In this document: one piece after another, positions 17,313-41,477 of the stretch
Layout: each line of letters starts with the position of its first letter
How positions within the stretch are numbered: position 1 is the first letter of the stretch
Sequence record: CP025712.1
DNA from: Escherichia phage YDC107_1
Length of the DNA stretch: 46,701 bases
Reading direction: 5' to 3' (one strand)
The notes under the pieces: model-generated
The model's database searches: none
What the model saw: the letters and a program-made list of their open reading frames with translations, nothing else
What the model was told of the DNA's origin: nothing
Position numbers and translations under genes: made by a program

Positions 17313-17390
17313 CGCCCCGTAGCCTGCCGGATCGCCGGAAAGGACCCGCAAAGGTGAGAATAATTATCACTTGCATTAATATCCAGCTTC

Positions 17391-17559
17391 TTCCACCATC
17401 GCACCGGACGGGCGACTATGAGGGACAAAACCGCGCACCATAAACGCGGTAAAAACCCGGTGTGCATCGTTTTTGATTATTTCCGCACACTCGCGCAGAA
17501 GGAATTCCCCGTCGGGCTACGGTCATGGTTAATGCGGAAATACGGCGACGATGCAGCGC
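17391..17559. repeat. Direct repeat copy A (about 169 bp), partner at 18341..18509
   Basis: Shared …CATGAGGGACAAA…CGGTAAAAACCCGGTGTGCATCGTTTTTGATTATTTCCGCACACTCGCGCAGA…TTCCCCGTCGGGCTACGGTCATGGTTAATGCGGAAATACGGCGACGATGCAGCGC with a few mismatches. Confidence 0.85.
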
Positions 17560-17679: not shown

Positions 17680-18276
17680 TTAATTAGTGATGCTGCGTGG
17701 CTTCATACAAATTTCAGAAATATGATTCTTTTCGTCCAAATGATGCTGGACATCATTTTTATCATCACTCAACAACTCTGCTGTTAATACAATCCCTGCT
17801 GTCTCAGATTTCCAGGAAATGCTGATATCCTGATCATCTGCATCAACATCATATTTTATCGAGTAAGGACTAAAGCTACGTCCAACGAACGCATCATTTA
17901 CCAGTACACGCCCACCCTGTCTGACCTGAAAGTCAACGCGCCCTGAAAGCTGATTTGCTGTTACAAGCAATGCCTTTTTTCTTTTTGTTTTATTGCTCAT
18001 TGCCACCAACTGTTCAGCCATCTCTCTTGTCACACTACCAGAAACTCTTTCTTGAATTTTCACAGAAAATTTTCTGGATGTAGTAGCATCGACATTAAAA
18101 AATCTGGATGTCATCAGGCAGTTATTAACAATTGGCATCAGCTCACTTACGATTGTAAAAAATTCCCGGTAAAGCTCATTTTGCTTTTCAACACACAGCT
18201 TTCCACAATCGTCCAGCTTACGCTCAAGAGCACTTAATCTTTCCATTATTGAATTAATTTTTTGCAACTCTTTCAT
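17680..18276 (-). CDS. Hypothetical protein (AT-rich moron between lysis genes and cos)
   Basis: 198 aa from MKELQKINSIMERLSALERK with a strong SD (GGAGG) upstream. The ORF-track start at 18537 (MRPWSH…) is a GTG inside a palindrome and probably not used. No family recognised. Confidence 0.6.
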   Translation of the reverse strand: MKELQKINSIMERLSALERKLDDCGKLCVEKQNELYREFFTIVSELMPIVNNCLMTSRFFNVDATTSRKFSVKIQERVSGSVTREMAEQLVAMSNKTKRKKALLVTANQLSGRVDFQVRQGGRVLVNDAFVGRSFSPYSIKYDVDADDQDISISWKSETAGIVLTAELLSDDKNDVQHHLDEKNHISEICMKPRSITN

Positions 18277-18299
18277 CAAAACCTCCTGACAAAGATACC

Positions 18300-18317
18300 G
18301 TGCGACCACGGTCGCAC
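18300..18317. repeat. 18-bp palindrome GTGCGACCACGGTCGCAC (candidate SopB-type centromere or protein-binding site), copy 1
   Basis: Perfect palindrome just upstream of the moron gene start. Confidence 0.6.
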
Positions 18318-18340
18318 GCTCCTGAATACATGCCCTGTTT

Positions 18341-18509
18341 CTTCCACCCTCGCACAGGACTGGCGAGCATGAGGGACAAACCCGCGAATCATTAGCGCGG
18401 TAAAAACCCGGTGTGCATCGTTTTTGATTATTTCCGCACACTCGCGCAGAGGAGTTCCCCGTCGGGCTACGGTCATGGTTAATGCGGAAATACGGCGACG
18501 ATGCAGCGC
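18341..18509. repeat. Direct repeat copy B (partner of 17391..17559)
   Basis: See copy A; together they bracket the 17680..18276 gene. Confidence 0.85.
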
Positions 18510-18519
18510 GGTATTTAAT

Positions 18520-18537
18520 GTGCGACCACGGTCGCAC
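18520..18537. repeat. 18-bp palindrome GTGCGACCACGGTCGCAC, copy 2
   Basis: Intergenic, between the DUF4406-like gene and direct repeat B. Confidence 0.6.
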
Positions 18538-18909: not shown

Positions 18910-19377
18910 TTAATTCGGGCATTGCGTCTTGATGTATTCCTGAAGCGTTCTCAGTGCTGTCTGGTCTCTGATGATTCCGTCCCGGATACCGAGAACGTTT
19001 CGTCCAGCAACTGGAGAGAGTTCGACGGTGGCATCATTGCCCATGCCGGAGGCGCTGGAGGTTTCGGCTGAGGATGGCACAGAGCATTTTCCTTTGACGA
19101 GCACCCGACCACCATTATCAAGCTTGCGCCGAAGAGCATCATTTTCAGCTTTCGCATCAGCCAACTCCTTCGTGTATTTTGCATCGAGCGCAGCAACATC
19201 ACGCTGACGCTGCTGCATGTCAGCGATGGTGGCGGTCGCCTGCTTCAGCTCACTGACTTTTTTATCACGCTGTTCTTTGTAGGCGATGGCGTTATCACGG
19301 TAATGATTAACAGCCCACGACAGGCAGACGATGATGCAGATAACCAGTGCGGAGATAATTGCGGTTACTCTGCTCAT
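18910..19377 (-). CDS. Rz: Spanin inner-membrane subunit Rz
   Basis: Lambda Rz-like N-terminus [30 protein letters not shown], coiled-coil periplasmic domain. Confidence 0.85.
18951..19157 (-). CDS. Rz1: Spanin outer-membrane lipoprotein Rz1 (embedded in Rz, +1 frame)
   Basis: [21 protein letters not shown] lipobox followed by a Pro-rich segment. Confidence 0.7.
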
Positions 19378-19874
19378 TGCTGCCCCCACAAACAGACTTC
19401 ACGCTCAATCTCACGGCGAGTCATCAGCCCTTTCCATTGCTTACCGCCAGCATATGTCCAGCGACGTAGTTGATCACATGCACCTTTGATATCGCCCTGG
19501 TTGATTTTGCGAAGAAGTGTCGATGTTCTGAAATTGCCTGCACCCACGTTGTAAACGAACGAGTAAAGAGCACCACGCGTTGTTTCCGGTATATCGACTT
19601 TGATGTACGGGTTAATTTGTCTGGCGACAGTAGCAAGGTCTTTATTCAGGAGAGCTTTGCATTCTGCTTCGGTATACGTTTTACCGAGCATAATGTCTTT
19701 TCCTGTATGCCCGTAACATACAGTCCATACACCAACGATGTCTTTGTAGGGGTTATGTCTCACACCTTCCAGACCATCGTTGCCGCTCGGACCAGAGATG
19801 AGCACAGATGCTATGGCAATAGCCCCGCCACCAATAGCAGTTGCGACAGCTTTGCGTAATGATGACTGCATCAT
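19374..19874 (-). CDS. R: SAR endolysin (T4-type lysozyme, phage 21 R-like)
   Basis: 166 aa; N-terminal SAR segment [16 protein letters not shown] then lysozyme domain; close to P21 R as I recall. Confidence 0.88.
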
Positions 19875-20143
19875 ATTTCCTTCGGTGCTCTCTTTCCCAA
19901 TTCACCAATAACCATCGCCGTGGCGGAAATATTATTGGCATCAGTTTTATCCAATATGTCCTGCAATATCTTCGTGCGCTTCATCTGCTCGCGTTTATTG
20001 AGCCGGTATGTAAGTACACCGAGGATAATGCTGAACGCGACACCGATAATGAAGCCCCAATCCTGCAATGACAGGCTGGCAAAGAACGCAGTAAGACCAG
20101 CACTACCATAAGATGCGCTGCTGTATCGTTCATCCATCTTCAT
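19871..20143 (-). CDS. S: Holin, probably pinholin-type
   Basis: 90 aa; MKM dual-start motif; weakly hydrophobic TMD1 and TMD2 [18 protein letters not shown]; immediately upstream of a SAR endolysin. Confidence 0.65.
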
Positions 20144-20238
20144 ATCTCTTACCTCGCAATAGTTGCTGAGGTTTCGGCTTGGAAACTATACGGCGAGAAA
20201 TAACCCCATCAAAAACGGCAGGGGAATATATTCTTCAG

Positions 20239-21315
20239 TTACTCAAATAACTTTTTCACTTCATCAACTGTCTGAAGATAACGTTCACCCTCAATCTCAA
20301 TACCGATTGCCTGACGACCTAACTTCAGCGCGGCTTTAATAGTAGAGCCTGATCCCATAAAGAAATCGGCAACGATATCTCCGGGGCGGGAACTACTTTT
20401 TATAATATGTTCCATCATCGCTGCAGGTTTTTCACATGGGTGCTTGCCAGGATAATATTGCACAGGAGGAAACTCCCATACATCGGTATAAGGTACATCA
20501 GCAGTAACATGAAATGGGCGGCGCAAATTTTCATACTGAGCCTTCAAATCATCATACTGCTTCTTTACTTCCTCATAACGCAATTTCAGATCGCTATAAC
20601 GCTTTTCATGTTCTGAATAATCAACATTAAAAGGATATGGACACGGGACACCGAGTGAATCTGCCTTCCTGCGAAATAATTCGCATAGTTTATTAAAATC
20701 ACTTAATGATGGAAGCCGCCACTGCGAATAAGAAAACCAGTGCGAACACATCTGCTTTCCTGTTGCTGAATTAATGTCTGCGGCTGATATATCTAACTGA
20801 CGGCGAGCCAGCGAAAAAGCATCAATTAGTGGAGAAAAAATATTTTTTCTTAAATCTGCACATTTTGAAGCATAACCTGACTGACCTTTAGCATAACCTG
20901 ACGCGCCGTAATGCTCTGCAAATAATATTCTTTCAGTGGCAGGAAAATAAGCCCTTAAACTTTCTTTATGACAACCGCGCCACATACCACTGGGTTTAGC
21001 CCAAATGATATGGTTCAGAACATTGAAACGGTCGCGAGTTAATAATTCAATTTTTGACGCAAGGCGAGAGCCGGTAAACATATACAGGCTGCCATTAGGG
21101 GCCAATATCCGCCAAAATTCTGCCAAAAATTCATCAATCCACCCCAAAAAGTCAGCATCGCTATCCCACTGGTTATCCCATGCGTTAGCCTTTACGCCGA
21201 AGTATGGTGGGTCTGTTGCAATCAAATTGACCGAGTTATCAGGGATGGTTTTGATAAATTGCAGAGAATCTGCGCAAACGAGTTGCGCGCCATGAATATT
21301 AGTGGTTTTGAACAT
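20239..21315 (-). CDS. DNA methyltransferase (DPPY-type, N6-adenine or N4-cytosine)
   Basis: Motif IV LIATDPPYF near the N-terminus and motif I FFMGSGST near the C-terminus; likely start MFKTTNIHGAQ at 21315 (ORF-track start 21360). Confidence 0.8.
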   Translation of the reverse strand: MFKTTNIHGAQLVCADSLQFIKTIPDNSVNLIATDPPYFGVKANAWDNQWDSDADFLGWIDEFLAEFWRILAPNGSLYMFTGSRLASKIELLTRDRFNVLNHIIWAKPSGMWRGCHKESLRAYFPATERILFAEHYGASGYAKGQSGYASKCADLRKNIFSPLIDAFSLARRQLDISAADINSATGKQMCSHWFSYSQWRLPSLSDFNKLCELFRRKADSLGVPCPYPFNVDYSEHEKRYSDLKLRYEEVKKQYDDLKAQYENLRRPFHVTADVPYTDVWEFPPVQYYPGKHPCEKPAAMMEHIIKSSSRPGDIVADFFMGSGSTIKAALKLGRQAIGIEIEGERYLQTVDEVKKLFE

Positions 21316-21450
21316 AGCTATTATTTTTTTGCCTGGGTAAGCTAACCCGGCGATGCGCATCGCGGGTGGGCTTTAGGTTCAGCCTATAGCTCTGGCATGG
21401 GTTGACCGCAGGACAAGCTGCAACTTGTCCTGCGCCCACTTTTCAGGCAC

Positions 21451-21472
21451 AAAAAAACCGCCATAAAGGCGG
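21451..21472 (-). terminator. Rho-independent terminator on the late (minus) strand upstream of the methylase/lysis block, tR'-like position
   Basis: Minus-strand CCGCC-TTTAT-GGCGG followed by seven T. Confidence 0.5.
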
Positions 21473-21559
21473 CTTGTTGGCTGTTGGGTACAAAAAACCC
21501 AACTTAACAAAACAATAACTAAAAACCGTAATTTTGCCAAGCTTTTTCGTTTTTGTGCT

Positions 21560-21577
21560 GTGCGACCGTGGTCGCAC
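21560..21577. repeat. 18-bp palindrome GTGCGACCGTGGTCGCAC, copy 3 (opposite orientation of the central dinucleotide)
   Basis: Intergenic, in the late regulatory region. Confidence 0.6.
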
Positions 21578-21582
21578 AGTTT

Positions 21583-21810
21583 TTAGAAAGTTGCCTGCTT
21601 ATATTCATCGGTCAAAGAATATCGACCAGACCCGCTACGCTTTGCAACCCCAAAACAGATCATCTGTTCGATGATAAATTCAACGGCAGCTTGACTCAAA
21701 AAACAGGCTTCGCTTAACTCTTTCAGGGAAATGCGTGGGTATCCACGCATAACACATTCCACACTCAGGGCCGCTTCAGTCATATTTCCACGAATTTCAT
21801 TAATATTCAT
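21583..21810 (-). CDS. Hypothetical small protein
   Basis: 75-aa ORF just upstream of the terminator region; no family recognised. Confidence 0.45.
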   Translation of the reverse strand: MNINEIRGNMTEAALSVECVMRGYPRISLKELSEACFLSQAAVEFIIEQMICFGVAKRSGSGRYSLTDEYKQATF

Positions 21811-21823
21811 AACGCCTCTCTAA

Positions 21824-22063
21824 TCAATCTTGAAACTGGAAATCAACATCAGCCATAAAGCGGTTCAACTCAGCCAGTTTTGGCCCCATAGTCCCAACTA
21901 AGCGACCAGCCAGTCGGTCTGCCAGGTTGGTACTGTTGAAACCATATTCCTTTTCGAAACGTTCAACCTTCTGCCACAACTCATACAGTTCGTTAGCTAT
22001 CTCCGCAACGTCGTCGCGCATTTTTTCGTTACCTTGATAATTCATAATATCCTCCAAATTCAT
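21824..22063 (-). CDS. Hypothetical small protein
   Basis: 79-aa ORF; no family recognised. Confidence 0.45.
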   Translation of the reverse strand: MNLEDIMNYQGNEKMRDDVAEIANELYELWQKVERFEKEYGFNSTNLADRLAGRLVGTMGPKLAELNRFMADVDFQFQD

Positions 22064-22210
22064 ATAGTTAGTGGGTTATTGCCCCTCAATGACACGAACT
22101 GTAACTCTGCCAAACGAACACATCCAGTGTTATTTTTCACTTTTTAGTGAAATTTTTAATTTGCGCTTTTTTCTTGTTTTGGTGTATTTTATGGCTATGG
22201 AGGCTATAAT

Positions 22211-22522
22211 ATGTTTAACGTGATAACCCACCCTGCAGCACTGGATGAACTGCTTGAACTACCAGATGATTTGCGAGGTCGCATGACCAGATTAATTGAG
22301 CGACTGGAGAAGGAAGGCAACAAACTGAAGATGCCCCATAGCCGTGTAATAGGTGGAGGGCTTTTTGAACTACGAGTAGGGGATAAAAACATCGCAAGAA
22401 CGCTGTACGCCTACGCGACTGGTAACGAAATTTATCTATTGCATGCATTTGTAAAAAAGACACAGAAAACACCGGTGAAGGCTATCGAAATCGCCAGAAC
22501 TCGCCTGAAGGAGATGAACTGA
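22211..22522 (+). CDS. Type II toxin, HigB / Gp49-like (RelE/ParE superfamily)
   Basis: 103 aa with …GGGLFELRVGDKNIARTLYAYATGNEIYLLHAFVKKTQKTP… typical of Gp49/HigB; SD GGAGG; upstream palindrome TTTCACTTTTTAGTGAAA at 22135-22152 is a candidate operator. Confidence 0.8.
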   Translation: MFNVITHPAALDELLELPDDLRGRMTRLIERLEKEGNKLKMPHSRVIGGGLFELRVGDKNIARTLYAYATGNEIYLLHAFVKKTQKTPVKAIEIARTRLKEMN

Positions 22523-22809
22523 TGAAAGCGAAAGGCATCCCGTTTAACGAAGTAAAAGAAAAACTTCTCAACACTCCAGAAGCCATCAAAGGATATGAAG
22601 AGGCCGATAAAGAGCTGGAGATGGTCGAAATGTTATACGAAATGAGGGAAAGAGCAGGTTTAACGAAATCAGCTCTGGCTGAACGAATGGGGTTGCGACC
22701 GTCAGCCATCAGCCGCCTGGAAAGCAATCCTTTAGGGGCAAGTATGAAAACTTTGGCTAAATATGCTCATGCCTGCGGCGCAACCATCGATATTCGCGCT
22801 GTTTATTAA
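22522..22809 (+). CDS. HigA-like HTH (XRE family) antitoxin
   Basis: 95 aa, HTH LTKSALAERMGLRPSAISRLE; start overlaps toxin stop (ATGA). Confidence 0.8.
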   Translation: MKAKGIPFNEVKEKLLNTPEAIKGYEEADKELEMVEMLYEMRERAGLTKSALAERMGLRPSAISRLESNPLGASMKTLAKYAHACGATIDIRAVY

Positions 22810-25932: not shown

Positions 25933-26233
25933 TTTCTTGTGCGACCACGGTCGCACCCTCTCTGATTTCCAAGTAACGCTTAATCCAAAGATTTTCTATA
26001 TGCTTATTACCTGGCTGATTTGATAAATACCAATCGGCAATTACAGACTGCTTATTACTATCTGGTCGTGTCCTGTAACCACAAGTTGGACACCAAATAA
26101 CATATTCATTTCTTACCCCCGAATACCTTAATTCTGGCTTCGACGGTTTCCTGAACATAACTTGTTTACAAAGGCAGAATGGCACTTCCTGCCCGATGGC
26201 GTTTGATGATTTCACTGCGCTTCTCCGCCGCAT
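25913..26233 (-). CDS. Hypothetical protein with CxxC zinc-ribbon motif
   Basis: 106-aa ORF with CPTCG; start uncertain. Confidence 0.4.
   Translation of the reverse strand: MRRRSAVKSSNAIGQEVPFCLCKQVMFRKPSKPELRYSGVRNEYVIWCPTCGYRTRPDSNKQSVIADWYLSNQPGNKHIENLWIKRYLEIREGATVVAQENENNAI
25939..25956. repeat. 18-bp palindrome GTGCGACCACGGTCGCAC, copy 4
   Basis: At the junction of two small early genes. Confidence 0.6.
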
Positions 26234-26876
26234 TTAATAATGCGGTTCGATTTAAGCTCAGACATCGCGACTTAATTAAAAGCCAGCGTTCTTTATAATC
26301 TTGTCTCCAGCTATCAATAGATATATTCAGTAGAAAACTCAGATGCCTGTCCTGTTCTCTCTCATCAACTGCCTCAGCACACGTAAGTTCTGATTTAACC
26401 TGTTGTGCCGCGTAATAAATCAATTTCCGCATGGCTTTTTTCGTGGAGGCCTTCATTTTTTTAAAGCCGCCCCCCGAATGAGCAACCAGAAAATCAAGCC
26501 ATAACCACTGACAAACAATCACATCATTGTTGTAATCAGGCTTGCATCCGTAGCAATAATAAAGCCAGGCTGATTCCTCGTTATTCAACTGACCAATAGC
26601 CCTGCGCCAGCTGGCGCTCTGAAAATCAATATCAGTGAGCAACATTGATGATTGTTTAAATGTTTTCCCCTGATGGAATCTAACCGGCTCAGCAGGAACG
26701 GACACTTCGTATGAGTTATCATCCCCCACACTGATTGACCGGACTGGTTTATTGTTAAACCGTCCTGATCTACCGAGACGCATCTGCTCAAGCTGGACCT
26801 CCAGAATGCCACGCTGGCGATAATGAACATCAGCCAATGCCGTAGAGACGCAGCTGCGTATATACTCAAGCTCCAC
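26166..26876 (-). CDS. Hypothetical early protein directly downstream of cro (regulator or Q-like candidate)
   Basis: 236 aa from a GTG start with SD AAGGAG; contains CYGC…C cysteines; family not recognised. Confidence 0.5.
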   Translation of the reverse strand: MELEYIRSCVSTALADVHYRQRGILEVQLEQMRLGRSGRFNNKPVRSISVGDDNSYEVSVPAEPVRFHQGKTFKQSSMLLTDIDFQSASWRRAIGQLNNEESAWLYYCYGCKPDYNNDVIVCQWLWLDFLVAHSGGGFKKMKASTKKAMRKLIYYAAQQVKSELTCAEAVDEREQDRHLSFLLNISIDSWRQDYKERWLLIKSRCLSLNRTALLNAAEKRSEIIKRHRAGSAILPL

Positions 26877-27087
26877 GCTTACGACTCTCCTTAATCGACT
26901 GCTTTACCCGCCGAGTTGTAAAGTCACTCTTCAGCTTATAAGCAGTACGAACTTCAATATCGCTTTGCCGCAATGAAGGAATCTCTCCAGCGGTTAACCA
27001 TTGGTAAACAGCTCCGGGTGTTACACCTACCCCTGCCGCTGCTTTTTCTACACTGCCAAAATGGCGAATAAGTTCTTCTGGTTTCAT
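26866..27087 (-). CDS. cro: Cro-like HTH repressor
   Basis: 73 aa from MKPEELIRHFGSVEKAAAGVGVTPGAVYQWL; divergent from the repressor gene. Confidence 0.7.
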   Translation of the reverse strand: MKPEELIRHFGSVEKAAAGVGVTPGAVYQWLTAGEIPSLRQSDIEVRTAYKLKSDFTTRRVKQSIKESRKRGA

Positions 27088-27118
27088 GTTGTTATTATAA
27101 ACAATAAACAACAATTAA

Positions 27119-27156
27119 AGCCAGCTATAATAAATAAATTTTATAGCCAGCTATAA
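27119..27156. promoter_or_regulatory. Operator region between cro and cB: two AGCCAGCTATAA repeats
   Basis: Repeats at 27119-27130 and 27145-27156; the second lies in the near-palindrome TTATAGCCAGCTATAA; AT-rich promoter context. Confidence 0.5.
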
Positions 27157-27178
27157 GAAGATCATTTATGATTACAGT

Positions 27179-27775
27179 ATGAAAACACGAGGCGAACGAC
27201 TGAAAGCACGCCGTTTAGAGATGAAGCTGACGTTGCGAGAAGTTGCTGAGGCTGTCGATATCTCTATAGCAGGCGTCCAAAACTTAGAACGTGGCGACGT
27301 AATGCCGTCACTGGAGATAGGTATTGCCCTGGCTAAGTGCTTACGCAAGCCAGTGCATTGGGTGCTATATGGGACAGAATATGACCCTGATCGCATTCCT
27401 GTTATTGGCACAACTGAAAGTGGGCCGGATGAAGAGTGGAAGCCGGGACAGGTTCCAAATACTGAGCGATTCCTGCCATTCATCAGCCAGCGCAATACTG
27501 TGTATGCGTTAACTATCAGCAATCTTACGCAGGGAAACTATCAGCCAGGCGATTTTCTCCTGGTCGATTCTGCGCTGGAACTGGTCCCCGGCGAGGATGT
27601 TCTGGTTCGTGATACTGCAGGAAATATCACTATCCAGCGCCTGGCCCGTTTTGATGATGAAAATTACTATCTGGATGGAACAAACTCACAACGCGCCATC
27701 TTCAGGAAAAGCGATCTTGAATTTGTTCACCAAATAGTCGGAACGATCAAATCATTCATGGTTGAGGGTAGATGA
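27179..27775 (+). CDS. cB: Prophage repressor (N15 CB / lambda CI analogue): HTH plus degenerate LexA-like C-terminal domain
   Basis: 198 aa; N-terminal HTH LTLREVAEAVDISIAGVQNLERG. Confidence 0.8.
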   Translation: MKTRGERLKARRLEMKLTLREVAEAVDISIAGVQNLERGDVMPSLEIGIALAKCLRKPVHWVLYGTEYDPDRIPVIGTTESGPDEEWKPGQVPNTERFLPFISQRNTVYALTISNLTQGNYQPGDFLLVDSALELVPGEDVLVRDTAGNITIQRLARFDDENYYLDGTNSQRAIFRKSDLEFVHQIVGTIKSFMVEGR

Positions 27776-27869
27776 CTTAATACGGGGTTTATTGTTTGCT
27801 GTAAATCTGGTTTAATGCAGGGCATATGTTCTGTGGGTTGACTCAGGTTACAGCAGCAGAAAAAAGACG

Positions 27870-27905
27870 AAAAAAAACCCGAGTCGGCAAACTCGGGTCC
27901 TTTTC
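27870..27905. terminator. Bidirectional rho-independent terminator after the repressor gene
   Basis: A-run, CCCGAGT-CGGCAAA-ACTCGGG, then T-run. Confidence 0.5.
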
Positions 27906-28020
27906 AGGAAGCAGCCACAACAACGCGACAGATTCCGTCAATTCAAGATGCGTTTATTGTGGCTGCTCCTGCGGATTTTTTCAACCCGAAAAAACATAAT
28001 TCGCATGGAATGGCTAAAAA

Positions 28021-31000
28021 ATGACATTAAACGATTTCTATGCGGATCGCTTTGGCAGCGATCCGTTCTCGCTAATTGAAGCAGCACGGGATGAACTAAC
28101 CGAGCTGGCACAGATGGCTGGTATCAACTGGCCTGCCTGTTCCGACAACATCCAACTCAACCCTCGCGGGGGGGTTGAGCGTTACTCTTCATACAATAAA
28201 ACATCTCCAGAAGCTCTCGAAAAGAGCCTGAAAGGACGCGTAGAAATTTACTCCAGGCTGGAACACAGCAAAGGGATTGATTACCCGTTCATTAACTTCG
28301 TCCATAAAGGCAGCGATGCTGGCTCATGGAGCGGTTTCTCCTTCCTGTTTTCTGAATATCGCCGTGAGCAACAACGGAATAATGCGACCGTGGTCGCACA
28401 ACCGGAAGAAGAACGGGAAAGAATAGAACGTCAGGCCGAAGCACGTCGTCGCCGTGAAGAACAAAAACGAATTAATGACCTGAAAAACAACCAAATGGAC
28501 CATGAACGTTTGCTGGGATGGCTGGCATTCCACAGCGCGTGGGAACATGCTCAGGCTGAAGACGGCTCATGGCCATATGCGATTAAAAAAGGTATTCGTG
28601 ACGTTTTTAGTTCATGTGATGTGCGTCGCGTGACCAGTCACGACAGTGCGAAATGGAGCCGGGGGCCAACCACATATATGGCTATCCCTCTGGCTCACCT
28701 GGACGGTCGTTATGATGGTCGTATTGTGGGTTGGCAGCGAATCGACAAACAAGGTGGGAAATACCAGACCAGCGCAGTAACCAGCGGCGATTTCGTCGGT
28801 GCCTGCTTTGTTATCGGTGAGCTGAAAGGGGCGCAAAACATCGCTGTTACAGAAGGTTTTGCTACTGGTGCATCCATCTGGCTTGCCACGAAAAAAGATA
28901 AACGCTTTGACGCGGTGGTTGTCGCTGTATCCGCTAACAACATGGTTCATGTTGTGGAACAACTGGTAAACATGTACCCGGCGGCAAAAATCACCTGCGC
29001 ACTGGATAATGACCGGAAATCTGCCACAGAAGGAAAAGGGAATACCGGCCTGCGGACTGGCTATGAAATCTTATCGAAATTCAACGATGTCCGCTGCGTC
29101 TACCCAACTTTTGAAGACGATCCGCAAATGGAGTGCAGTGACTTCAACGACCTGCACAAACTACGTGGACTTCGTGAAACAGCACGTCAACTATTTGCAA
29201 CAGCAAACCGCCTGAAAACCGGCACTGATTTGCTATCTCTGACGCTCAACCGCCTGAAGACAATTAAGCGGGATAACCGTCGTACTTTTGCCAAAGAGCT
29301 GCTGAGAGCGGTGGATATTGGCATGCTAACCTGTCCGGTTCCTAACAGTCCGTCAGATTTGTTTAACATGTTCTGTATCGTTCTGCGTGAAATGGGGCTG
29401 GAAAATATCTATCGCGCTACGGTAAAAGACCACATTGCCCGTCGCCTGAATAAAAAATGCCGTATTGCCCAGGCTCCGCGCTCTTTCAGCGAACGCATAA
29501 CTGATCCCAATAAACGCCCTCAACATATCACCTATAAGCGTTTTGAAACTTCGGTAATGACCTATGACGTCCTGAAGTACGTGCAATCACTACAGGGGAT
29601 CGTCATCGTTCGTGCTGGTATGGGTTCCGGCAAATCTACTGGATTGTTACGACCGTTAATGCATAGCTCAGAACGCGGTATCTCTGTAGCTCACCGTGTT
29701 TCCCTTATTGGTGGCCTGTGGGAAATGATGACTGAAGGAAAAGGTGTAAAAGCCGATATCCTGCACTATCAGGACCCTGGCTATCAGGAAATGGCTCCAT
29801 ACGCCAGTAAACTGACCATCTGCATAAACTCGATTGTTAAAAACTGCTGGCAACCGTTGATGCGCCAGCACGACTATTTTGGCTTTGACGAGGCCACACA
29901 AGGGCTACGTGCCGTTCTTTCCGGTCGGGCTATGGAAAACCCAGTGGCTGTATTCAATACGCTAATTGACGCGCTGGCCAGAACGGAACAACACCCAATA
30001 ATGGTGGATGCTGATGCGAACGATCTGCTGGTTGACCTGGCTGAACTGGCTATGAAACGCCGTGAAGAACTAGGTTTACCGGCATGGCTGCAGATCCACG
30101 TAATTGAATTACCTGTTGATGTTCGCAACCGCGAAACAGGTGAGCCAATCCGGGTTTTTTATACAGAAAAAGATCGCATCATGACCGAGGTGGTGAAAGC
30201 TGTATCGGATGGCGAAAAAATCATGTTGGCCACCGACAGCTCCACCTTTGCAGAAGATGTGACCGCCACCCTGAGAATGCATTTTCCTGGTAAGAAATTT
30301 CTGTGCGTAAACCAGAAAAGCAAACAGGATGAAGAAGTCGATGCTTTTACCAACCAGCCAAAAGTAATGGTGATGAAATACGATGGACTGATCTACAGCC
30401 CGTCGATTTCCTCCGGGGTGTCATTTGAGAAAAAACATTTTGACCGTCATTTCGGCATGTTCTGCGGTGAAGTTGTGCCCAGCGACGCAGTGCAAATGCT
30501 ACGCCGCGACCGTACAGCAAAAGAATTTATTATCGGCTTTGATAAAGCTCGTGCAAAACGCGAGACTGATCCGCAAAAAATAGAACGTGCATTCGCCCAG
30601 GCATTACTTGCTACCGCAGGCATGAACGGTGAACTGACGGATGTCGTTTTCGATGGCGACCGTATATCAATGGGGGTGGCCAATACCGACTTTACCAGGA
30701 TGAAAATTAAAGCTGCCGCTATTGAAGCGTCTGCGCGTAACGACTACGCCAGCAACATGATCTGCATCATGCACAGCGACGGTTATAAGGTATCGCCATT
30801 AGCTACTGATTATGCCGCAAATGATTTTGGTAAAGAGCTGCGCAAAGAAGCGCGGGATATTGTGTGGGAACAGACGCTGGATCTGCACCTCAATACAGAG
30901 ACACCAGAAGAATCAGAGCGTGAAGAACTACTAAAAAAACGTGCGCTAACGCTTGAAGAACAGGCAAAACTTGTCCGCTGGGATATTGAGAACGAACTGA

Positions 31001-32004
31001 AACTACCGGTTGAAGAAGGCACGCTGAAATTCTATTTCGATGGTGCTCGAGACAAAATTCGCCGTTATGAAACGATGCTGCTTGATGAAGTCACAGCCCG
31101 TCGTTATGACCGTGAAGAAGCGGCTATCAATTTTACATACGCATACCGCCAGACCGGACAGTGGCAATATTTTGTGGTGACCGCGATGACACGCGAGCAG
31201 GCTGATGATGTATTCAAAGCGAAATTTCCGGGAATAATCGACTACAAGGTAAAAGCCACCCCAGCTGTTGAGGTCGGCATGCGCGGATTCTATGCGCTTA
31301 AATCAGCAACTCTCCGGCAGTATTTTATCGACTGCGGTATCGACCCTGAAACTATGACTGGCGAAGCGACGCAGGAACGCCTTAAGTTCGCTCGAGATAA
31401 TCTCATGACAGCAGAACGCCGTGACCTGTTGAATAACGTTCTGCGCATTGGTGGTTTTATGACACCAAAAGGGAAGCCTAAAGTGCCGGAAGCACTGTTT
31501 AAAAACATCTGCGACTCTCTCGGCCTAAAAACAGGAAAACGTCGCGGCAGAGATGGCGATAAGCGCCCGACATTGCGTTTTGTTGAGCCTGAGTCTGTAG
31601 CATTTATGCTTGATATTCTTACGCAACGTCAGGAGGACGGTATGACGTTGAAAGCTCGCAAGGCAGAAAAATCAACGACCGAAGTGGATCGCGATTTGTC
31701 ATTAAATATATATATGAATGGTGAAACGCGATCCACAAACACGGAGGAACAGGATCCCCCTCGTTCAGCTATATCACAGGCTTTGGCTGTATTGCCGGTG
31801 GCTGTTCCTGAGTCCTGGGCGATGAGTGCTCTGCCATCAGCCGAACTGGAATCTATCAGGGGGTGGTCAGTTGACAGCATCGCATACACGTTTGCAGCCC
31901 TTTATATGACTGAGTTTATGGATTTGCTGTCCGGTCATGAGATTAAGTTGCTGAAGGCTTTTATAGGCCCACGACATGCCAGCGATGAGTTTTGTGTAGT
32001 TTAG
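28021..32004 (+). CDS. repA: Replication protein: Toprim primase fused to a helicase/NTPase (N15 RepA / P4 alpha-like)
   Basis: 1327 aa; Toprim motifs (VTEGFATGASIW, ALDNDRKSATEGKG); Walker A GMGSGKST; Walker B-like FDEATQ. Confidence 0.9.
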   Translation: MTLNDFYADRFGSDPFSLIEAARDELTELAQMAGINWPACSDNIQLNPRGGVERYSSYNKTSPEALEKSLKGRVEIYSRLEHSKGIDYPFINFVHKGSDAGSWSGFSFLFSEYRREQQRNNATVVAQPEEERERIERQAEARRRREEQKRINDLKNNQMDHERLLGWLAFHSAWEHAQAEDGSWPYAIKKGIRDVFSSCDVRRVTSHDSAKWSRGPTTYMAIPLAHLDGRYDGRIVGWQRIDKQGGKYQTSAVTSGDFVGACFVIGELKGAQNIAVTEGFATGASIWLATKKDKRFDAVVVAVSANNMVHVVEQLVNMYPAAKITCALDNDRKSATEGKGNTGLRTGYEILSKFNDVRCVYPTFEDDPQMECSDFNDLHKLRGLRETARQLFATANRLKTGTDLLSLTLNRLKTIKRDNRRTFAKELLRAVDIGMLTCPVPNSPSDLFNMFCIVLREMGLENIYRATVKDHIARRLNKKCRIAQAPRSFSERITDPNKRPQHITYKRFETSVMTYDVLKYVQSLQGIVIVRAGMGSGKSTGLLRPLMHSSERGISVAHRVSLIGGLWEMMTEGKGVKADILHYQDPGYQEMAPYASKLTICINSIVKNCWQPLMRQHDYFGFDEATQGLRAVLSGRAMENPVAVFNTLIDALARTEQHPIMVDADANDLLVDLAELAMKRREELGLPAWLQIHVIELPVDVRNRETGEPIRVFYTEKDRIMTEVVKAVSDGEKIMLATDSSTFAEDVTATLRMHFPGKKFLCVNQKSKQDEEVDAFTNQPKVMVMKYDGLIYSPSISSGVSFEKKHFDRHFGMFCGEVVPSDAVQMLRRDRTAKEFIIGFDKARAKRETDPQKIERAFAQALLATAGMNGELTDVVFDGDRISMGVANTDFTRMKIKAAAIEASARNDYASNMICIMHSDGYKVSPLATDYAANDFGKELRKEARDIVWEQTLDLHLNTETPEESEREELLKKRALTLEEQAKLVRWDIENELKLPVEEGTLKFYFDGARDKIRRYETMLLDEVTARRYDREEAAINFTYAYRQTGQWQYFVVTAMTREQADDVFKAKFPGIIDYKVKATPAVEVGMRGFYALKSATLRQYFIDCGIDPETMTGEATQERLKFARDNLMTAERRDLLNNVLRIGGFMTPKGKPKVPEALFKNICDSLGLKTGKRRGRDGDKRPTLRFVEPESVAFMLDILTQRQEDGMTLKARKAEKSTTEVDRDLSLNIYMNGETRSTNTEEQDPPRSAISQALAVLPVAVPESWAMSALPSAELESIRGWSVDSIAYTFAALYMTEFMDLLSGHEIKLLKAFIGPRHASDEFCVV
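28383..28398. repeat. 16-bp core TGCGACCGTGGTCGCA, copy 5, inside repA
   Basis: Outer bases not complementary (16 of 18); mirrored copy at 45080-45097. Confidence 0.5.
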
Positions 32005-32021
32005 AGGGTAGAAGCGTGGGA

Positions 32022-32288
32022 ATGATGCAAGAGTGCCTCGTTTTGATTGAAGGGTATGATCCGTATGTTGTTAACGTCAGCAGAATGGATACTGGCTATA
32101 GCGACTACAAAACTGGTCGTGAACTGCCGTTCACCATCATCAGGATGAATAGCTTTGGCGATGATGATGCTGTTTATTGCTGTATAGCCAGCGATAAAAA
32201 CATGGAAGACCGGACAGATGAAGCCCGTATGCTATTGAGGAAATATAAGGTAAAGCCGTTATCAGAGAATAACGCTGAGAGGGGTTAA
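32022..32288 (+). CDS. Hypothetical protein
   Basis: From ATG MMQECLVLIEGYDP (ORF-track start 31992 is TTG). Confidence 0.45.
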   Translation: MMQECLVLIEGYDPYVVNVSRMDTGYSDYKTGRELPFTIIRMNSFGDDDAVYCCIASDKNMEDRTDEARMLLRKYKVKPLSENNAERG

Positions 32289-32290
32289 AA

Positions 32291-32686
32291 ATGGCAGTTC
32301 AATCATACAAATACGAATCCCCTTTGGATAAGGGATACATTCGTATCAAGTTAAGTCGTTCTCAGCATAAGGCTATTTTTAAGGTAAGGAAAATTCGCAT
32401 ATTGGATGCGTATGCGTATTACTACAACGGTGAAAATGTTGTTGTTGAACACTTTCTTGCACGATGGTTTGTAGCTCTGATTTTTGTCCCTCTCCTGTTA
32501 ATTGGTACTTTTGTGGATGGTTTTCCTAGTACATGGCGGGAGATAAAGAAAGGCCTATTCCCGCGTAAGTACGGCAGATTTTCGCAAGATAGCTGGCGAG
32601 TTATACCTGGTAAACATTCTGTGGATGAGCAGCCGATTGTTGATTACTGGTTGAAGCATATGGCTGATGCTAAAAAAGTTGATTGA
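32291..32686 (+). CDS. Hypothetical membrane protein
   Basis: 131 aa with SD GAGAGGGG; TM segment WFVALIFVPLLLIGTFV. Confidence 0.5.
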   Translation: MAVQSYKYESPLDKGYIRIKLSRSQHKAIFKVRKIRILDAYAYYYNGENVVVEHFLARWFVALIFVPLLLIGTFVDGFPSTWREIKKGLFPRKYGRFSQDSWRVIPGKHSVDEQPIVDYWLKHMADAKKVD

Positions 32687-32704
32687 GTTGTGGAAGGAGT
32701 ATTT

Positions 32705-32929
32705 ATGAACTGTAACAAAAATGAAGAAACTCGCCTGGTTTGGACGGTAGTAATCGGAGATAAAGAGGGCGGTGAAGAGCCTCATTTTGATTATTCTGTG
32801 GCTTTGCAGGCTCTCATCCTTGAAGCGCAGAGATACCAACAAGAGATGCAGAAGAACCCTCAACTGGAACCTCGACCAATTGGCCTATTCTGCGAGCGAG
32901 TATCAGCGGCGGAACTCCCTGATATCTGA
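32705..32929 (+). CDS. Hypothetical small acidic protein
   Basis: MNCNKNEETRLVWTVVIG…; SD GGAAGGA. Confidence 0.45.
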   Translation: MNCNKNEETRLVWTVVIGDKEGGEEPHFDYSVALQALILEAQRYQQEMQKNPQLEPRPIGLFCERVSAAELPDI

Positions 32930-33120
32930 TGCCCTCCAACAGCTGATCAGGTTCTGATCAGTTAGTAAAGCAAACTATAAAAACACCTGTCCCCGTGACT
33001 GGTCACGGGGTAAAATGTCTTTGCAAATTATTGACGTGTGCGTCGTTTTGACGGTAAAGTTACTTCGCTGCGGTAAATCCCGTAGCCGGGACTCTCAACC
33101 CCGAAATCCGAACGACGCAC

Positions 33121-33143
33121 AACACGCGCCAGCGTGTTTTTTT
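33121..33143 (+). terminator. Rho-independent terminator ending a short untranslated transcript upstream of the anti-repressor operon
   Basis: AACACGC-GCCA-GCGTGTT followed by a T-run. Confidence 0.45.
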
Positions 33144-33309
33144 GTGTGTATGAGCCTGCGCATATCCGAATTATGGTGGCTCAGGTGGGGCAGCCGAAAG
33201 GCTGGCCGGTGTCGTTTGGGCCGGTGTTGAGAACCCCGCTTGGGCTACCACCCCATAGAGATTCTCAACTCTGGTGGTAGCACTGTTTTACCAAACAAGA
33301 GTGCATACC

Positions 33310-33474
33310 ATGTTCAAATTCAAATTTGCGGCAGTCGTTCGCACAGACAAAAAGTCACACATCCATCATCTTTCCACCATCGCGTCATCTGAACGGGAAG
33401 CTCGTCGCCAGTTCGCCAGCCGGTTTGTCCTGGTATTGTCTGCCCGTATTCCGGTGCGCGAGGTGGCTGCATGA
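33310..33474 (+). CDS. Small protein, first gene of the anti-repressor operon (Icd-like position)
   Basis: 54 aa from MFKFKFAAVVRTDKK. Confidence 0.35.
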   Translation: MFKFKFAAVVRTDKKSHIHHLSTIASSEREARRQFASRFVLVLSARIPVREVAA

Positions 33475-33704
33475 ATCAGGTAAAAATGAACACTGTTGGC
33501 CTGCTGGAATCGTTGGATGAACGTCTGGCTCAGGTCTATGCGCTTGTGTCATCAGCCCATCGTACAGTCTCCAGTTGTGAGGCGTCGATTTATCTCTCAG
33601 AAGCCGGGAAGCTCCTTCAAATCGCGTGTGAGTTGACACACAAAGCACAGGGGTATTCAGCATCTCTCTCGTCGCAATTGCAGCACAATAAGGAGGCCAA
33701 ATGA
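33471..33704 (+). CDS. Hypothetical protein (anti-repressor operon)
   Basis: 77 aa, SD GAGGTGG, ATGA-coupled to neighbours. Confidence 0.45.
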   Translation: MNQVKMNTVGLLESLDERLAQVYALVSSAHRTVSSCEASIYLSEAGKLLQIACELTHKAQGYSASLSSQLQHNKEAK

Positions 33705-34477
33705 GCGCGTTAGCTGTATTTTCGTTTCAGGAAGAGCATCAGGTTCGTGTAGTGATGATTGATAGCGATCCGTGGTTTGTTGCATCTGATGTGTGTATGG
33801 CGGCGGGTATTGATTCTACGGCCATTAGAAAGTTGGATGAGGACGAAAAGGGTCTGCATTTAATGCAGACCCCTGGCGGATACCAGAATGTTTCAATCAT
33901 CAAGGAGTCAGGTCTATACACCCTAATCCTCCGCTGCCGTGACGCGGTGAAGCAAGGCACAACAGCTTGGCGGTTTCGCAAATGGGTAACGAACGAAGTC
34001 TTGCCCTCTATTCGCAAAAATGGAGAGTACGTTTACGTTGAGCCAGAGCCAATGCGAGCAGCAGAGCCGTTGAACTGGAGGCAGAAAGAGTATCTGCGAG
34101 GGCTGATTAACGATATTGCACAAAGTTTTCAATACCGAAATGCCTGGATTAGCGGTGTATGGTTGGCTTTGCGTCGGGCGTGTCGTAATCCATCCCCGAA
34201 CCCCATAACTGTTGATGATTTGCCAGCAATAACGGCAGAACTGCGACGGATTTTGACGGCTGCTGAGTCGGCATTGGGGAACATGCGCACGTATGAACGA
34301 GAGTTGTTGCGTGATGTTGTTCGTGGTGGTAGGCGGAGTATGTCGTGTGGTGATTTGCCCATCACCGATATCAACTCTGATCTGGAAAAGGCGTTACCCG
34401 CGCATTTTGAACTGGCAGTTCAAAAACTTGAGCAGTTGTCCGCGCAGCTAAAGCCAGCAGAAATCACCAATAAATAG
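33701..34477 (+). CDS. ant: Anti-repressor with Bro-N domain
   Basis: 258 aa; N-terminus FSFQEEHQVRVVMIDSDPWFVASDVCMAAGI… typical of Bro-N/Ant; SD AGGAGG. Confidence 0.75.
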   Translation: MSALAVFSFQEEHQVRVVMIDSDPWFVASDVCMAAGIDSTAIRKLDEDEKGLHLMQTPGGYQNVSIIKESGLYTLILRCRDAVKQGTTAWRFRKWVTNEVLPSIRKNGEYVYVEPEPMRAAEPLNWRQKEYLRGLINDIAQSFQYRNAWISGVWLALRRACRNPSPNPITVDDLPAITAELRRILTAAESALGNMRTYERELLRDVVRGGRRSMSCGDLPITDINSDLEKALPAHFELAVQKLEQLSAQLKPAEITNK

Positions 34478-34649
34478 GGTTGGCCAGCCCGAATTGATGC
34501 CCTTCTTAGTGAGGGGAAGCCTCGCAGTCTGGGCGGTGATGTCTGTGGTTGCAGCCGCGTTTCCTCCGTTACTTCTGCCCTTTGCAGGGGGCAGGCGAGG
34601 CAGGCCACATAACAAGGCACCGATTAATTCGGTGCCTTTAACGTATGCT

Positions 34650-36551
34650 TTAGCCGAAATATGTCAGCCATGCTAACTGCATTGCTGACATGGGGCTGTT
34701 TGCACTGCCTGACCACGCATAATTCTGGCCATTATAATGAAACTCAACAACGTATGAGCCATCACCAATATTTCTCACAGGCTTAAATACCGGCTTAGAT
34801 ACAGGTGAAGAAGGCGCGGGCGGTTGCTGTTCTTCTACGCTCTCTTCCTCTTCCTCTTCCTCTTCCTCTATCTCAATTTCGTCGTCATCCAGATCGTCAT
34901 CCTCTGATAATTCATCCGTCTGTTCAGGTATTGCTTCCAGCTCTTCTTCGTCAGGCATAACGATTTCTGGAGAATCTATTTTCAGCTGCCATTGTCCATT
35001 TTCGCCAACAAATTGCCCCAGAGCATCAGCAGCAAATTCCAGGTATCGACTAATCATTGTAGGGCTAAATTTGAATGCTCTTAGAGTGCTGTTCGTGATT
35101 TTTATAGAGGGGTCATGCTCTACCAGCTGCTTAACTGTGTTATGCAGACGAACCCCGGCATCTCCTCTGGCGAATCCTGGCATTTCGTCATCAAGCTGCT
35201 GCAATGCTTCCAGCCTGGTATTTTCGTTTCCAGTATTTGGCCTCCATGTCTTTGAGAAGTTGGCCAGCTTGAATTGCTTATAGTGTAATTGAGTGTTTTC
35301 ATCGTCATGGCCTAAAATTTCCATAAAGAAAACATCCTCATCTACGTTTTTCCAACGAGGATCTACGCGGAAAAACATTTCATACGCAATACGGGCATAA
35401 ATAGCACGACTATCTTTATAAACACGGCGGTCATCTTTGAAAAATGATTTAACCCACGGGTTAAAAGCCTTTGCTAATATGGCATTAATCCGTCCGTTTT
35501 CAGAGCGTGTGTCGTTATCTCCATAACCTTTAACGACATCATCAAAATCAGATGCTGCCGGGCATGAGCGAAGTACATTTATTAAATAAACAAATGTTTT
35601 TGCTTCGCATAATGTATATATTTTTCTGGTTATATCATCAGAAGTTCTTTTTTTTGCTTGGCCTAAAAAATCAACGGTATACTTACCAGAAACAGTAAAT
35701 GTACCTTGATACATAATCTCAATCATTCGTCTTCCTGACAATGCAGCAAGTGCAAATGCCAAAGGAGCCATACCTGAACGAGTGTTTAGATTATTTAATG
35801 TAGCAGGGCTATTTATAATATCGTAAATAGCTTGCATATATTTAGGGTAATCAATGACCACCACGTTACGTTTCTTATTGTGCAGAACGTCTGCCCATCG
35901 TTGCTGGATAGATGCGCGTTCGGCAGGGCTTAGTTGAAGATGATAGAGAATCTCATGGTTAACTTTTAGCTGATTCAACTCCTCAAGCAAGGCAGATCCT
36001 TGCTGTAGTAATTTATATAAATAATCGCGCTTATCTTTCCAGTTATCGCTAGTTAAATCAGAAATGGCGAATTGCCACTCTTTATATTTATTTGATAATT
36101 TTAATAACTTATTATGACTTTTGTTATCACCAATTCTGATATTAGATAAATCTTCTGATAAAGGGAGAATTAATTTTAATTTTGCCTGTAAAGCTGACAT
36201 TCTCTGGCGAATATCGGCAGCAGGTAGAGAAAGCCATGACAATAGCTCCTCATTATATAAAGGATACTTTTCAGATAGGCGATGTATATTTTTTTCAAAG
36301 CTATGATGAAGTTTATCATCAAACCGTTTTCTGGCCCTGCTCATATAGGTATTGAATGTGTTGGCTGTAATTCTTTTTTCTAATCCTTTCCCCCTAAACT
36401 TTCGCTTGTCATTAAATAATGCATTTTTAAACTTTAATGCAACAGCCTTTATTTTTTTTGTTTTCTCCCCTTGAGGACGGTCAGAGTTATCTATTGACTC
36501 AACATCGCTAACAAGTGAGTTTATTAATTCACCGATTTTTACTTTGCTCAT
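34650..36551 (-). CDS. telN: Protelomerase (TelN-like telomere resolvase)
   Basis: 633 aa; N-terminus MSKVKIGELINSLVSDVESIDNSDRPQGEKTKKIK… and length resemble N15 TelN as I recall; acidic C-terminal stretch; start 190 bp from the telRL-like palindrome. Confidence 0.88.
   Translation of the reverse strand: MSKVKIGELINSLVSDVESIDNSDRPQGEKTKKIKAVALKFKNALFNDKRKFRGKGLEKRITANTFNTYMSRARKRFDDKLHHSFEKNIHRLSEKYPLYNEELLSWLSLPAADIRQRMSALQAKLKLILPLSEDLSNIRIGDNKSHNKLLKLSNKYKEWQFAISDLTSDNWKDKRDYLYKLLQQGSALLEELNQLKVNHEILYHLQLSPAERASIQQRWADVLHNKKRNVVVIDYPKYMQAIYDIINSPATLNNLNTRSGMAPLAFALAALSGRRMIEIMYQGTFTVSGKYTVDFLGQAKKRTSDDITRKIYTLCEAKTFVYLINVLRSCPAASDFDDVVKGYGDNDTRSENGRINAILAKAFNPWVKSFFKDDRRVYKDSRAIYARIAYEMFFRVDPRWKNVDEDVFFMEILGHDDENTQLHYKQFKLANFSKTWRPNTGNENTRLEALQQLDDEMPGFARGDAGVRLHNTVKQLVEHDPSIKITNSTLRAFKFSPTMISRYLEFAADALGQFVGENGQWQLKIDSPEIVMPDEEELEAIPEQTDELSEDDDLDDDEIEIEEEEEEEEESVEEQQPPAPSSPVSKPVFKPVRNIGDGSYVVEFHYNGQNYAWSGSANSPMSAMQLAWLTYFG
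34842..34868. repeat. (CTCTTC)n hexanucleotide repeat inside telN, encoding a poly-Glu tract
   Basis: Four and a half tandem CTCTTC units; mirrored at about 38616-38642. Confidence 0.6.
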
Positions 36552-36714
36552 CTTTCCTCTCCTGATTATCCGCTCGGATTATCGTAACACAATTTGAGAA
36601 TAAGATAACTAATAACGCGTTAACTTAGGCACAAACTAACAGAACACAATAACGGATAATAAATAAAAACACAATATCGGAACGTTAAAATTTGTTCCTT
36701 GACTTTGTTCTGAA

Positions 36715-36770
36715 AATCAGCACATAATTTCCCATTATACGCGCGTATAATGGGAAATTATGTGCTGATT
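36715..36770. other. telRL-like telomere resolution site; centre of dyad symmetry between 36742 and 36743
   Basis: AATCAGCACATAATTT-CCCATTATACGCGCGTATAATGGG-AAATTATGTGCTGATT, same architecture as N15 telRL as I recall. Confidence 0.8.
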
Positions 36771-36933
36771 TTCAGAACAAAGTCAAGGAACAAATTTTAA
36801 CGTTCCGATATTGTGTTTTTATTTATTATCCGTTATTGTGTTCTGTTAGTTTGTGCCTAAGTTAACGCGTTATTAGTTATCTTATTCTCAAATTGTGTTA
36901 CGATAATCCGAGCGGATAATCAGGAGAGGAAAG

Positions 36934-38833: not shown

Positions 38834-39005
38834 AGCATACGTTAAAGGCACCGAATTAATCGGTGCCTTGTTATGTGGCCTGCCTCGCCTGCCCCCTGCA
38901 AAGGGCAGAAGTAACGGAGGAAACGCGGCTGCAACCACAGACATCACCGCCCAGACTGCGAGGCTTCCCCTCACTAAGAAGGGCATCAATTCGGGCTGGC
39001 CAACC

Positions 39006-40778: not shown

Positions 40779-40796
40779 AAATACTCCTTCCACAAC

Positions 40797-41191: not shown

Positions 41192-41193
41192 TT

Positions 41194-41460: not shown

Positions 41461-41477
41461 TCCCACGCTTCTACCCT

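Follow-up and report, generated by a model that had tools for sequence, protein, structure and literature searches.

In a stretch of 46,701 nucleotides from Escherichia phage YDC107_1 (sequence record CP025712.1), hereafter the window, we identified the product of the minus-strand gene at 20239..21315 as a β-class N6-adenine DNA methyltransferase of the M.EcoGII family, whose start codon is preceded by a conserved structured RNA leader. We favor, with a probability of about 0.6, the reading that this orphan methylase is expressed late through the antiterminator Q and methylates progeny phage DNA, protecting it against restriction. The methylase itself is ordinary as a discovery: it corresponds to gene 52 of N15-type phages, a link not made in the first-pass annotation, and belongs to a known enzyme family, of which some members already serve as reagents, e.g., M.EcoGII in chromatin footprinting. 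The leader may be undescribed and is the one element possibly new here.

Protein family and expected specificity

The methyltransferase gene and the parts of its product used in the following are located as listed (aa, amino acids; HTH, helix-turn-helix; SAM, S-adenosylmethionine):

20239..21315, minus strand: methyltransferase gene, 358 aa, orthologous to N15 gp52, M.EcoGII family
21202..21213, minus strand: catalytic motif IV, DPPY, aa 35-38, invariant in 34 family members
20524..20979, minus strand: insert in the position of the target-recognition domain, aa 113-264, consisting of a linker, an XRE-like HTH and a long helix
20347..20361, minus strand: SAM-binding motif I, FMGSG, aa 319-323, with F319, G321, S322 and G323 invariant in the 34 family members

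The Pfam profile PF01555 (N6_N4_Mtase) matched the protein with an E-value of 1.3e-46, covering profile positions 1-216 of 221, and PHROGs as well as PADLOC called it a DNA or Type II methyltransferase. The motifs follow the order motif IV, target-recognition position, motif I, which is the β-class order and confirms the first-pass annotation, where DPPY had been noticed ahead of FxGxG. Likewise, the protein exhibits the Rossmann-like methyltransferase core fold common to the solved β-class members. Based on the DPPY motif, typical of adenine enzymes, and on close relatives producing N6-methyladenine (m6A), the target is probably the N6 of adenine, rather than the N4 of cytosine.

The two halves of the core are separated by about 150 extra residues, made up of a poorly predicted linker (aa 113-147), an XRE-like HTH (aa ~148-222) and a single long helix (aa 233-263). 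The HTH part is kept across the family, with an invariant SHWF...SQW.LP stretch, and the long helix varies in both sequence and length. The insert had earlier been described as rich in coiled coil and as a possible target-recognition region; its position and the DNA-binding HTH fold agree with the latter, whereas the coiled coil is limited to the last third. Within the M.EcoGII family, the insert region does not appear to confer sequence specificity.

The protein shares 100% identity with the product annotated as 'DNA adenine methylase' in Escherichia phage PhiR46_1, and 83.7%, 62% and 59% with N15 gp52, phiKO2 gp52 and PY54 ORF60, respectively, where the differences (16-40% of residues) are mostly found in the long helix of the insert. 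Full-length matches with 54-58% identity were obtained for Stx2-converting phages, phiP27, SfV, 1720a-02, OS31 and phiARM81ld. The identity is 56.9% to the 1720a-02 methylase (57% to Stx2_95 and 1720a-02 over residues 1-356), 57% to p25 of Serratia phage OS31 and 56% to p56 of Aeromonas phage phiARM81ld. For M.EcoGII, a frameshift-tolerant alignment yielded 194 identical out of 339 aligned codons (~57%), a slight underestimate because the comparator was a machine-read expression construct from the supplement of PMC11551740 containing reading errors. The Stx2_95 protein, in turn, is 90% identical to the M.EcoGII gene. All alignments with the relatives run collinearly from end to end, and the insert is part of them.

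M.EcoGII modifies adenine irrespective of the surrounding sequence and harms the cell under constitutive expression, and the 1720a-02 enzyme has been named as very similar to it (PMC5778455). An extremely relaxed specificity has been described for OS31 p25, which protects DNA against many m6A-sensitive enzymes, and p56 of phiARM81ld, originating from a linear plasmid prophage, was reported to be without sequence specificity (PMC7556043). M.EcoGII, OS31 p25 and phiARM81ld p56 are mutually 52-62% identical, the same distance as to the window protein. Since these three assayed relatives are equidistant and all non-specific, lack of specificity as a family trait is the simplest reading, and by analogy with them the window enzyme would methylate adenine with little or no sequence preference. 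The expectation in the first-pass annotation that a new discrete motif would be written is thus unsupported, as the three relatives (54-57% identity) methylate adenine in essentially any context.

Late-operon anatomy and the structured leader

The elements surrounding the gene are listed in the order in which they are met on the minus strand (nt, nucleotides):

26166..26876, minus strand: Q antiterminator gene (PF06323 Phage_antiter_Q, E 4e-84)
21560..21577, no strand assigned: 18-bp palindrome GTGCGACCACGGTCGCAC, a SopB (ParB) centromere site equal to N15 IR3, abutting the putative late promoter
21512..21540, minus strand: promoter-like site TTGGCA-17-TATTGT, the putative late promoter, found by scan and conserved in relatives
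21448..21475, minus strand: intrinsic terminator found by scan, with the stem GCCGCC/GGCGG and seven T
21313..21447, minus strand: conserved structured 5′ leader of ~135 nt ending at the start codon, matched by covariance model R1
21434-21439 with 21366-21371, minus strand: leader helix P0
21408-21433, minus strand: leader hairpin P1
21350-21363, minus strand: leader hairpin P3
18910..20143, minus strand: lysis cassette, on the same strand as the methylase
19871..20143, minus strand: holin gene of the lysis cassette
19374..19874, minus strand: lysozyme gene (GH24; PF00959, E 5e-48)
18910..19389, minus strand: Rz gene of the lysis cassette

On the minus strand, the gene is preceded by homologs of N15 genes 50 and 51, the palindrome, the promoter-like site, the terminator and the leader, and it is followed at 95 nt by the genes for holin, lysozyme and Rz, as expected from the earlier placement of an orphan methyltransferase directly upstream of the lysis genes. 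The positions homologous to the promoter-like site are annotated as -35/-10 in N15 and as 'putative late promoter' in phiKO2. The terminator, about 35-65 nt from the promoter-like site, is conserved, with loops that vary, in N15, MStein, phiKO2 and PY54, and is annotated in the N15 and phiKO2 records. The whole layout of partition site, promoter and terminator is conserved in N15, MStein-2023a, phiKO2 and PY54. N15 gp52, phiKO2 gp52 and PY54 ORF60 occupy the same place as the window gene, with the gp50/gp51 homologs, the SopB site, the late promoter and the terminator ahead of them and the lysis genes directly behind. Together with the Q gene and the downstream lysis and structural genes on the minus strand, the succession of promoter and terminator reproduces the pR′-tR′ anatomy of a lambdoid late operon.

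Similar arrangements are found in the wider family. Homologs of M.EcoGI and M.EcoGII have Q on one side and the lysis or stx genes on the other. The order in Stx2_95 is Q, a similar terminator, a second terminator-like hairpin, the methylase homolog, tRNAs, stx2AB and holin, and in OS31 the methylase homolog lies between Q and holin. Like the window gene, both phiARM81ld p56 and OS31 p25 are located directly before holin. Among 80 related viral loci, lysis genes lie within ~1.2 kb downstream in at least 48, and in many of the 80 a Q homolog is located at most 2.5 kb upstream. As a side observation, the Stx2_95 terminator after Q (L002 4500-4535) is almost identical to that of the telomere phages (..GGCGGGTTTTTTATGCCTGAAA); a second hairpin with a T-run (L002 4840-4862) directly precedes the leader, with a small winged-helix-like open reading frame (ORF) between the two, and many other loci also carry a GC-rich hairpin just before the leader.

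Neither a restriction endonuclease nor another defence gene was detected among the neighbors by Pfam and PADLOC scans, and no restriction endonuclease is annotated in PhiR46_1, in line with the first-pass annotation, which had seen no restriction partner nearby. The PADLOC 'MTase_II' match (E 2e-118) consists of the methylase alone, and the adjacent cognate endonuclease characteristic of Type II restriction-modification is lacking. The gene is thus prophage-borne and orphan, and the upstream terminator and the Q gene suggest that it is silent in the lysogen. Based on this anatomy and on the annotation of its relatives, the methylase is most likely the first protein of a Q-dependent late operon. 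M.EcoGI and M.EcoGII were likewise not expressed in the lysogen (PMC5778455). Because these relatives are silent and the window gene lies behind a terminator, a methylome comparison of lysogen and cured strain, as proposed at first, is expected to be blank even with an active enzyme.

The favored mechanism can be outlined as follows. In the plasmid prophage, transcripts from the late promoter would stop at the terminator ~60 nt downstream, so that the enzyme, whose relatives harm growth, would not be made. Upon induction, Q would allow transcription to continue past the terminator, through the leader and the genes for the methylase, holin, lysozyme, Rz and the virion. The enzyme would then methylate adenines throughout the replicating phage DNA, and packaged genomes would be protected in the next host from many m6A-sensitive restriction systems at once. 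The structured leader would exert control at a second level, probably that of translation. Protection of phage DNA from restriction, already suggested in the first-pass annotation, is the role that the literature gives to the characterized relatives. Methylation would likely be global, which makes the 'dam' annotation misleading, and it is expected in induced cells or virions, not in lysogens. Phage-plasmids spreading between E. coli strains would thereby carry a general anti-restriction device, bearing on host range and on sensitivity to m6A-dependent Type IV systems.

The stretch from the terminator to the ATG is more conserved than the surrounding coding sequence and shows compensatory changes. 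The covariance model R1, built from ten phiKO2-type leaders of other phages, matched the window with 48 bits (E 4e-12), and its matches end at the start codon in the window, N15, Stx2_95 (51 bits) and OS31 (32 bits). Searches with this model recovered the leader in ~58 of 86 sources. Outside the window, the leader was noted at the following loci:

L002:4863-5003, leader in Stx2_95
L003:4369-4503, leader in N15
L004:3374-3505, leader in a further locus
L005:13871-14003, leader in phiARM81ld

In an alignment of 57 distinct sequences, fitted to the covariance model and hence favoring structure, 90% of the cells were in standard pairs, compared to 68% for shuffled sequences and 29-45% with the partners slid, and both-sided changes were observed for 28 of the 31 pairs. 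An independent MAFFT/RNAalifold run had earlier found P0 and P1 with compensatory changes, and the single-sequence fold of the leader has a z-score of -4.25. The fold is a three-way junction with the invariant junction nucleotides UGGGCG and GCCCA. Helix P2, as well as P4 in N15-type sequences, is poorly supported, and neither is claimed for the window.

The G-U pairs occur on the mRNA-sense strand and model matches on the opposite strand are weak, which argues that the leader acts as an RNA and not as a double-stranded DNA site. A DNA pattern of the junction nucleotides gave 120 matches in viral contigs, 113 of which are followed 9-37 nt later by the start of a methylase homolog. The leader therefore belongs to the methylase gene, with which it occurs in telomere phages, in Stx phages and in further lambdoid phages, and not to late operons in general, and we rejected the idea of a generic late-operon element on this ground. 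The same leader is common to the window gene and the 90%-identical M.EcoGII homolog lying upstream of stx2 in Stx2_95, the sole Shiga-toxin phage examined. Comparison of the region 20100-22300 with Rfam 15 yielded no family match, with four weak, unrelated hits of 20-27 bits against gathering thresholds of 40-55, and ARAGORN detected no tRNA; a known RNA was therefore discarded as an explanation. A full-text literature search found no description of such a leader motif.

The UGGGC strand (21434-21439) has two mutually exclusive partners, a proximal CCCA/CCCG (21396-21400) and the distal GCCCA (21366-21371), with mean duplex energies of -8.4 and -10.3 kcal/mol, respectively, over 46 distinct leaders. 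Both partners are available in nearly all members, hinting at alternative folds that could constitute a switch. Furthermore, in most members the small helix P4 overlaps the AAGG ribosome-binding sequence. We tentatively propose, at somewhat short of even odds, that the leader is an undescribed cis-regulatory RNA gating a family of harmful non-specific methylases. It could serve as a riboswitch-like sensor, e.g., of SAM or S-adenosylhomocysteine, or as an operator bound by the RNA-binding methylase; by analogy to com-mom of Mu, translational control of the harmful enzyme would be the most economical idea. For the question of how phages hold back such a harmful enzyme until the host cell is lost, the leader provides a testable entry point. 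In the lambdoid branch, a GATC (Dam site) is found immediately before the methylase ATG (..TGATCTATG or ..TGATCCATG), as at L002:4997-5000 and in many other lambdoid loci, e.g., L055 and L041; there is none in the telomere-phage branch.

The leader also bears on the gene model. The minus-strand ORF spans 20239..21360 and encodes 373 aa, with the ATG at 21315 as its internal Met16. In an alignment of five telomere phages, 'CTATG' at 21315 is invariant; phiKO2 lacks the ATG at 21360, which in PY54 is out of frame. Together with the lengths of the family members, which cluster at 347-360 aa, this conservation led us to prefer the start at 21315, as in the gene model of the first-pass annotation (20239-21315). 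The 373-aa model of GenBank and RefSeq was rejected, as its ATG is not conserved and falls within leader hairpin P3; this start is called in PhiR46_1 and the RefSeq plasmids (window 21316-21360). By the same reasoning on the conserved start, N15 gp52 is under-called in RefSeq, where it has 285 aa, with the frame being open for 362 aa from the conserved ATG (L003 4501-4735).

Alternative readings of the gene

A sequence-specific enzyme, either Dam-like at GATC or reading a new short motif through its HTH insert, and serving selective protection or phage regulation, appears unlikely. It would agree with the 'DNA adenine methylase' or 'dam' labels in PhiR46_1, phiNP, PY54 and phiKO2, with the XRE-like HTH fold, usually a sequence reader, and with the distal insert helix being strongly different between clades; sequence-specific orphan phage Dam enzymes, such as M.EcoVT2Dam, do exist. 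However, all three assayed family members are non-specific, and the labels are automatic or homology-based names. As the HTH part is conserved across the assayed enzymes (54-59% identity to the window protein), it cannot by itself explain a difference in specificity. M.EcoVT2Dam, moreover, is listed apart from the M.EcoGI/GII homologs of the same genomes, as a separate enzyme in a survey of Shiga toxin-producing E. coli genomes. Several points nonetheless weigh against the non-specific, Q-controlled methylase that we favor. All assayed members of the M.EcoGII family lie outside the N15 clade, and enzymes with 57% identity may still differ in specificity. Within the insert, the long helix is only 16-35% identical to that of the characterized enzymes, HTH domains confer sequence specificity in other proteins, and database records do carry the Dam-type names. 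The family tree is unrooted and the phylogenetic bracket of specificity informal, because the family is star-like at 52-62% identity with its nearest outgroups below 25%. Regarding expression, the promoter matches the consensus at 9 of 12 positions, and promoter-like sites are no commoner in the region than in shuffles; the dependence on Q is deduced from anatomy; and N15-type leaders, that of the window included, do not form P4 and are without a well-placed Shine-Dalgarno sequence before the ATG.

This last feature would also fit a gene that is decaying or poorly expressed, left over as a functionless passenger of the late promoter module, a reading to which we give hardly any credence. In the P840 ortholog, disruption by a transposon affected neither lysis nor lysogeny, so that the gene is dispensable there, which fits an accessory function as well. 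On the other side, the ORF is intact with all catalytic motifs invariant, 16 E. coli plasmid prophages carry the gene at 98-100% conservation, all telomere phages examined retain it, and the leader is conserved with compensatory changes. It is also quite improbable that RNA is the main target, or that the role is regulatory and not protective, with phage or host transcripts or the enzyme's own leader being modified late. M.EcoGII does act on RNA strands, RNA:DNA hybrids and single-stranded RNA, and the methylase's own mRNA carries a conserved structured RNA with an A-rich loop. Yet no evidence of in vivo RNA modification was found for any family member, the fold and motifs of the window protein are of the DNA methyltransferase type, and the leading place in the late operon, the harm to the cell and the silence in the lysogen fit the DNA-protection paradigm of Mom and Hia5.

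Related systems and the phage-plasmid context

With M.EcoGII and M.EcoGI of E. coli O104:H4 prophages, the window enzyme shares the β-class architecture, the length, and the prophage-borne, orphan nature; in contrast, their host elements are integrated lambdoid prophages and not a linear plasmid prophage, and 43% of the residues differ. The phage-plasmid phiARM81ld resembles the window in encoding a protelomerase. It differs by a Mu Com-like zinc-finger ORF (CxxC...CxxC; L005 14001-14216), located between the leader and the methylase and overlapping the methylase start; the phiARM81ld leader match (21 bits) ends at the start of this Com-like gene. None of the 80 related viral loci searched contained the Com-like ORF, and a Com-like translational activator near the window gene was discarded, as neither tblastn queries with ARM81ld p55 and with Mu Com nor a scan for CxxC...CxxC revealed one.

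Mom of Mu and the non-specific methyltransferases Hia5/Hin1523/Nma1821 of Mu-like prophages follow the same logic of a broad, harmful adenine modification that is late, subject to multilayer control and directed against restriction; on lambda DNA, Hia5 attained 61% adenine modification. However, Mom has an acyltransferase fold and the Hia5 family is related to Dam-type methyltransferases, neither being homologous to the window protein, and their control proceeds via Com and, in Mu, via Dam and OxyR. The β-class enzymes of solved structure M.BceJIV, M.MboIIA, M.RsrI, CcrM and M.PvuII are sequence-specific and without the HTH-plus-long-helix insert, and several belong to restriction-modification systems. 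T4 Dam, P1 Dam and M.EcoVT2Dam are orphan phage adenine methyltransferases like the window gene, but are GATC-specific; T4 Dam and P1 Dam are not β-class enzymes.

PhiR46_1, which carries the identical protein, has a genome of 46 kb that is bounded by telL/telR and encodes ParAB, a primase and a cI repressor. The window also encodes a protelomerase. Among 5426 complete E. coli genomes, the gene occurs in 16, on plasmids only (36-75 kb, mostly ~46 kb). The identity to PhiR46_1 at the gene, the protelomerase and the plasmid-only occurrence indicate that the window represents an N15-like linear phage-plasmid. Its part 26776-46701 is a 99.9% inverted self-copy through the telL hairpin, centered at ~36738, so that TelN, Bro-N, RepA and other genes are present in two mirror-image copies; the methylase gene belongs to the sequence that is not duplicated, and the window does not include the right arm with sopAB. 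Either the assembly read through the hairpin, or the inverted copy represents a head-to-head dimer form.

The palindrome GTGCGACCACGGTCGCAC next to the putative late promoter is present in six copies in the window, compared to 0.06 expected:

18300-18317, copy of GTGCGACCACGGTCGCAC
18520-18537, copy of GTGCGACCACGGTCGCAC
21560-21577, copy of GTGCGACCACGGTCGCAC abutting the putative late promoter
25939-25956, copy of GTGCGACCACGGTCGCAC
28382-28399, copy of GTGCGACCACGGTCGCAC
45080-45097, copy of GTGCGACCACGGTCGCAC mirroring the one at 28382

It equals the dispersed SopB centromere sites of N15 (IR1-4). The published N15 IR3 oligonucleotide matches the N15 sequence at the homologous place (PMC7205306), where the phiKO2 record lists a 'putative plasmid partitioning site'.

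Downstream of the lysis cassette, two ~172-bp segments (17388-17559 and 18339-18509) flank the ORF 17680..18537, which has no Pfam or PADLOC match. Each segment matches the PhiR46_1 counterpart of the other at 92-93% identity, indicating a direct repeat. At the position of this ORF, after a DUF4406 gene, N15 has a cytosine methyltransferase (gene 58), which the window element is without. Just upstream of the methylase unit, on the plus strand, a HigB/Gp49-like toxin (22211-22522; PF05973, E 2.5e-29) and an HTH_3 antitoxin (22522-22809) are encoded, the homologs of N15 genes 49 and 48.

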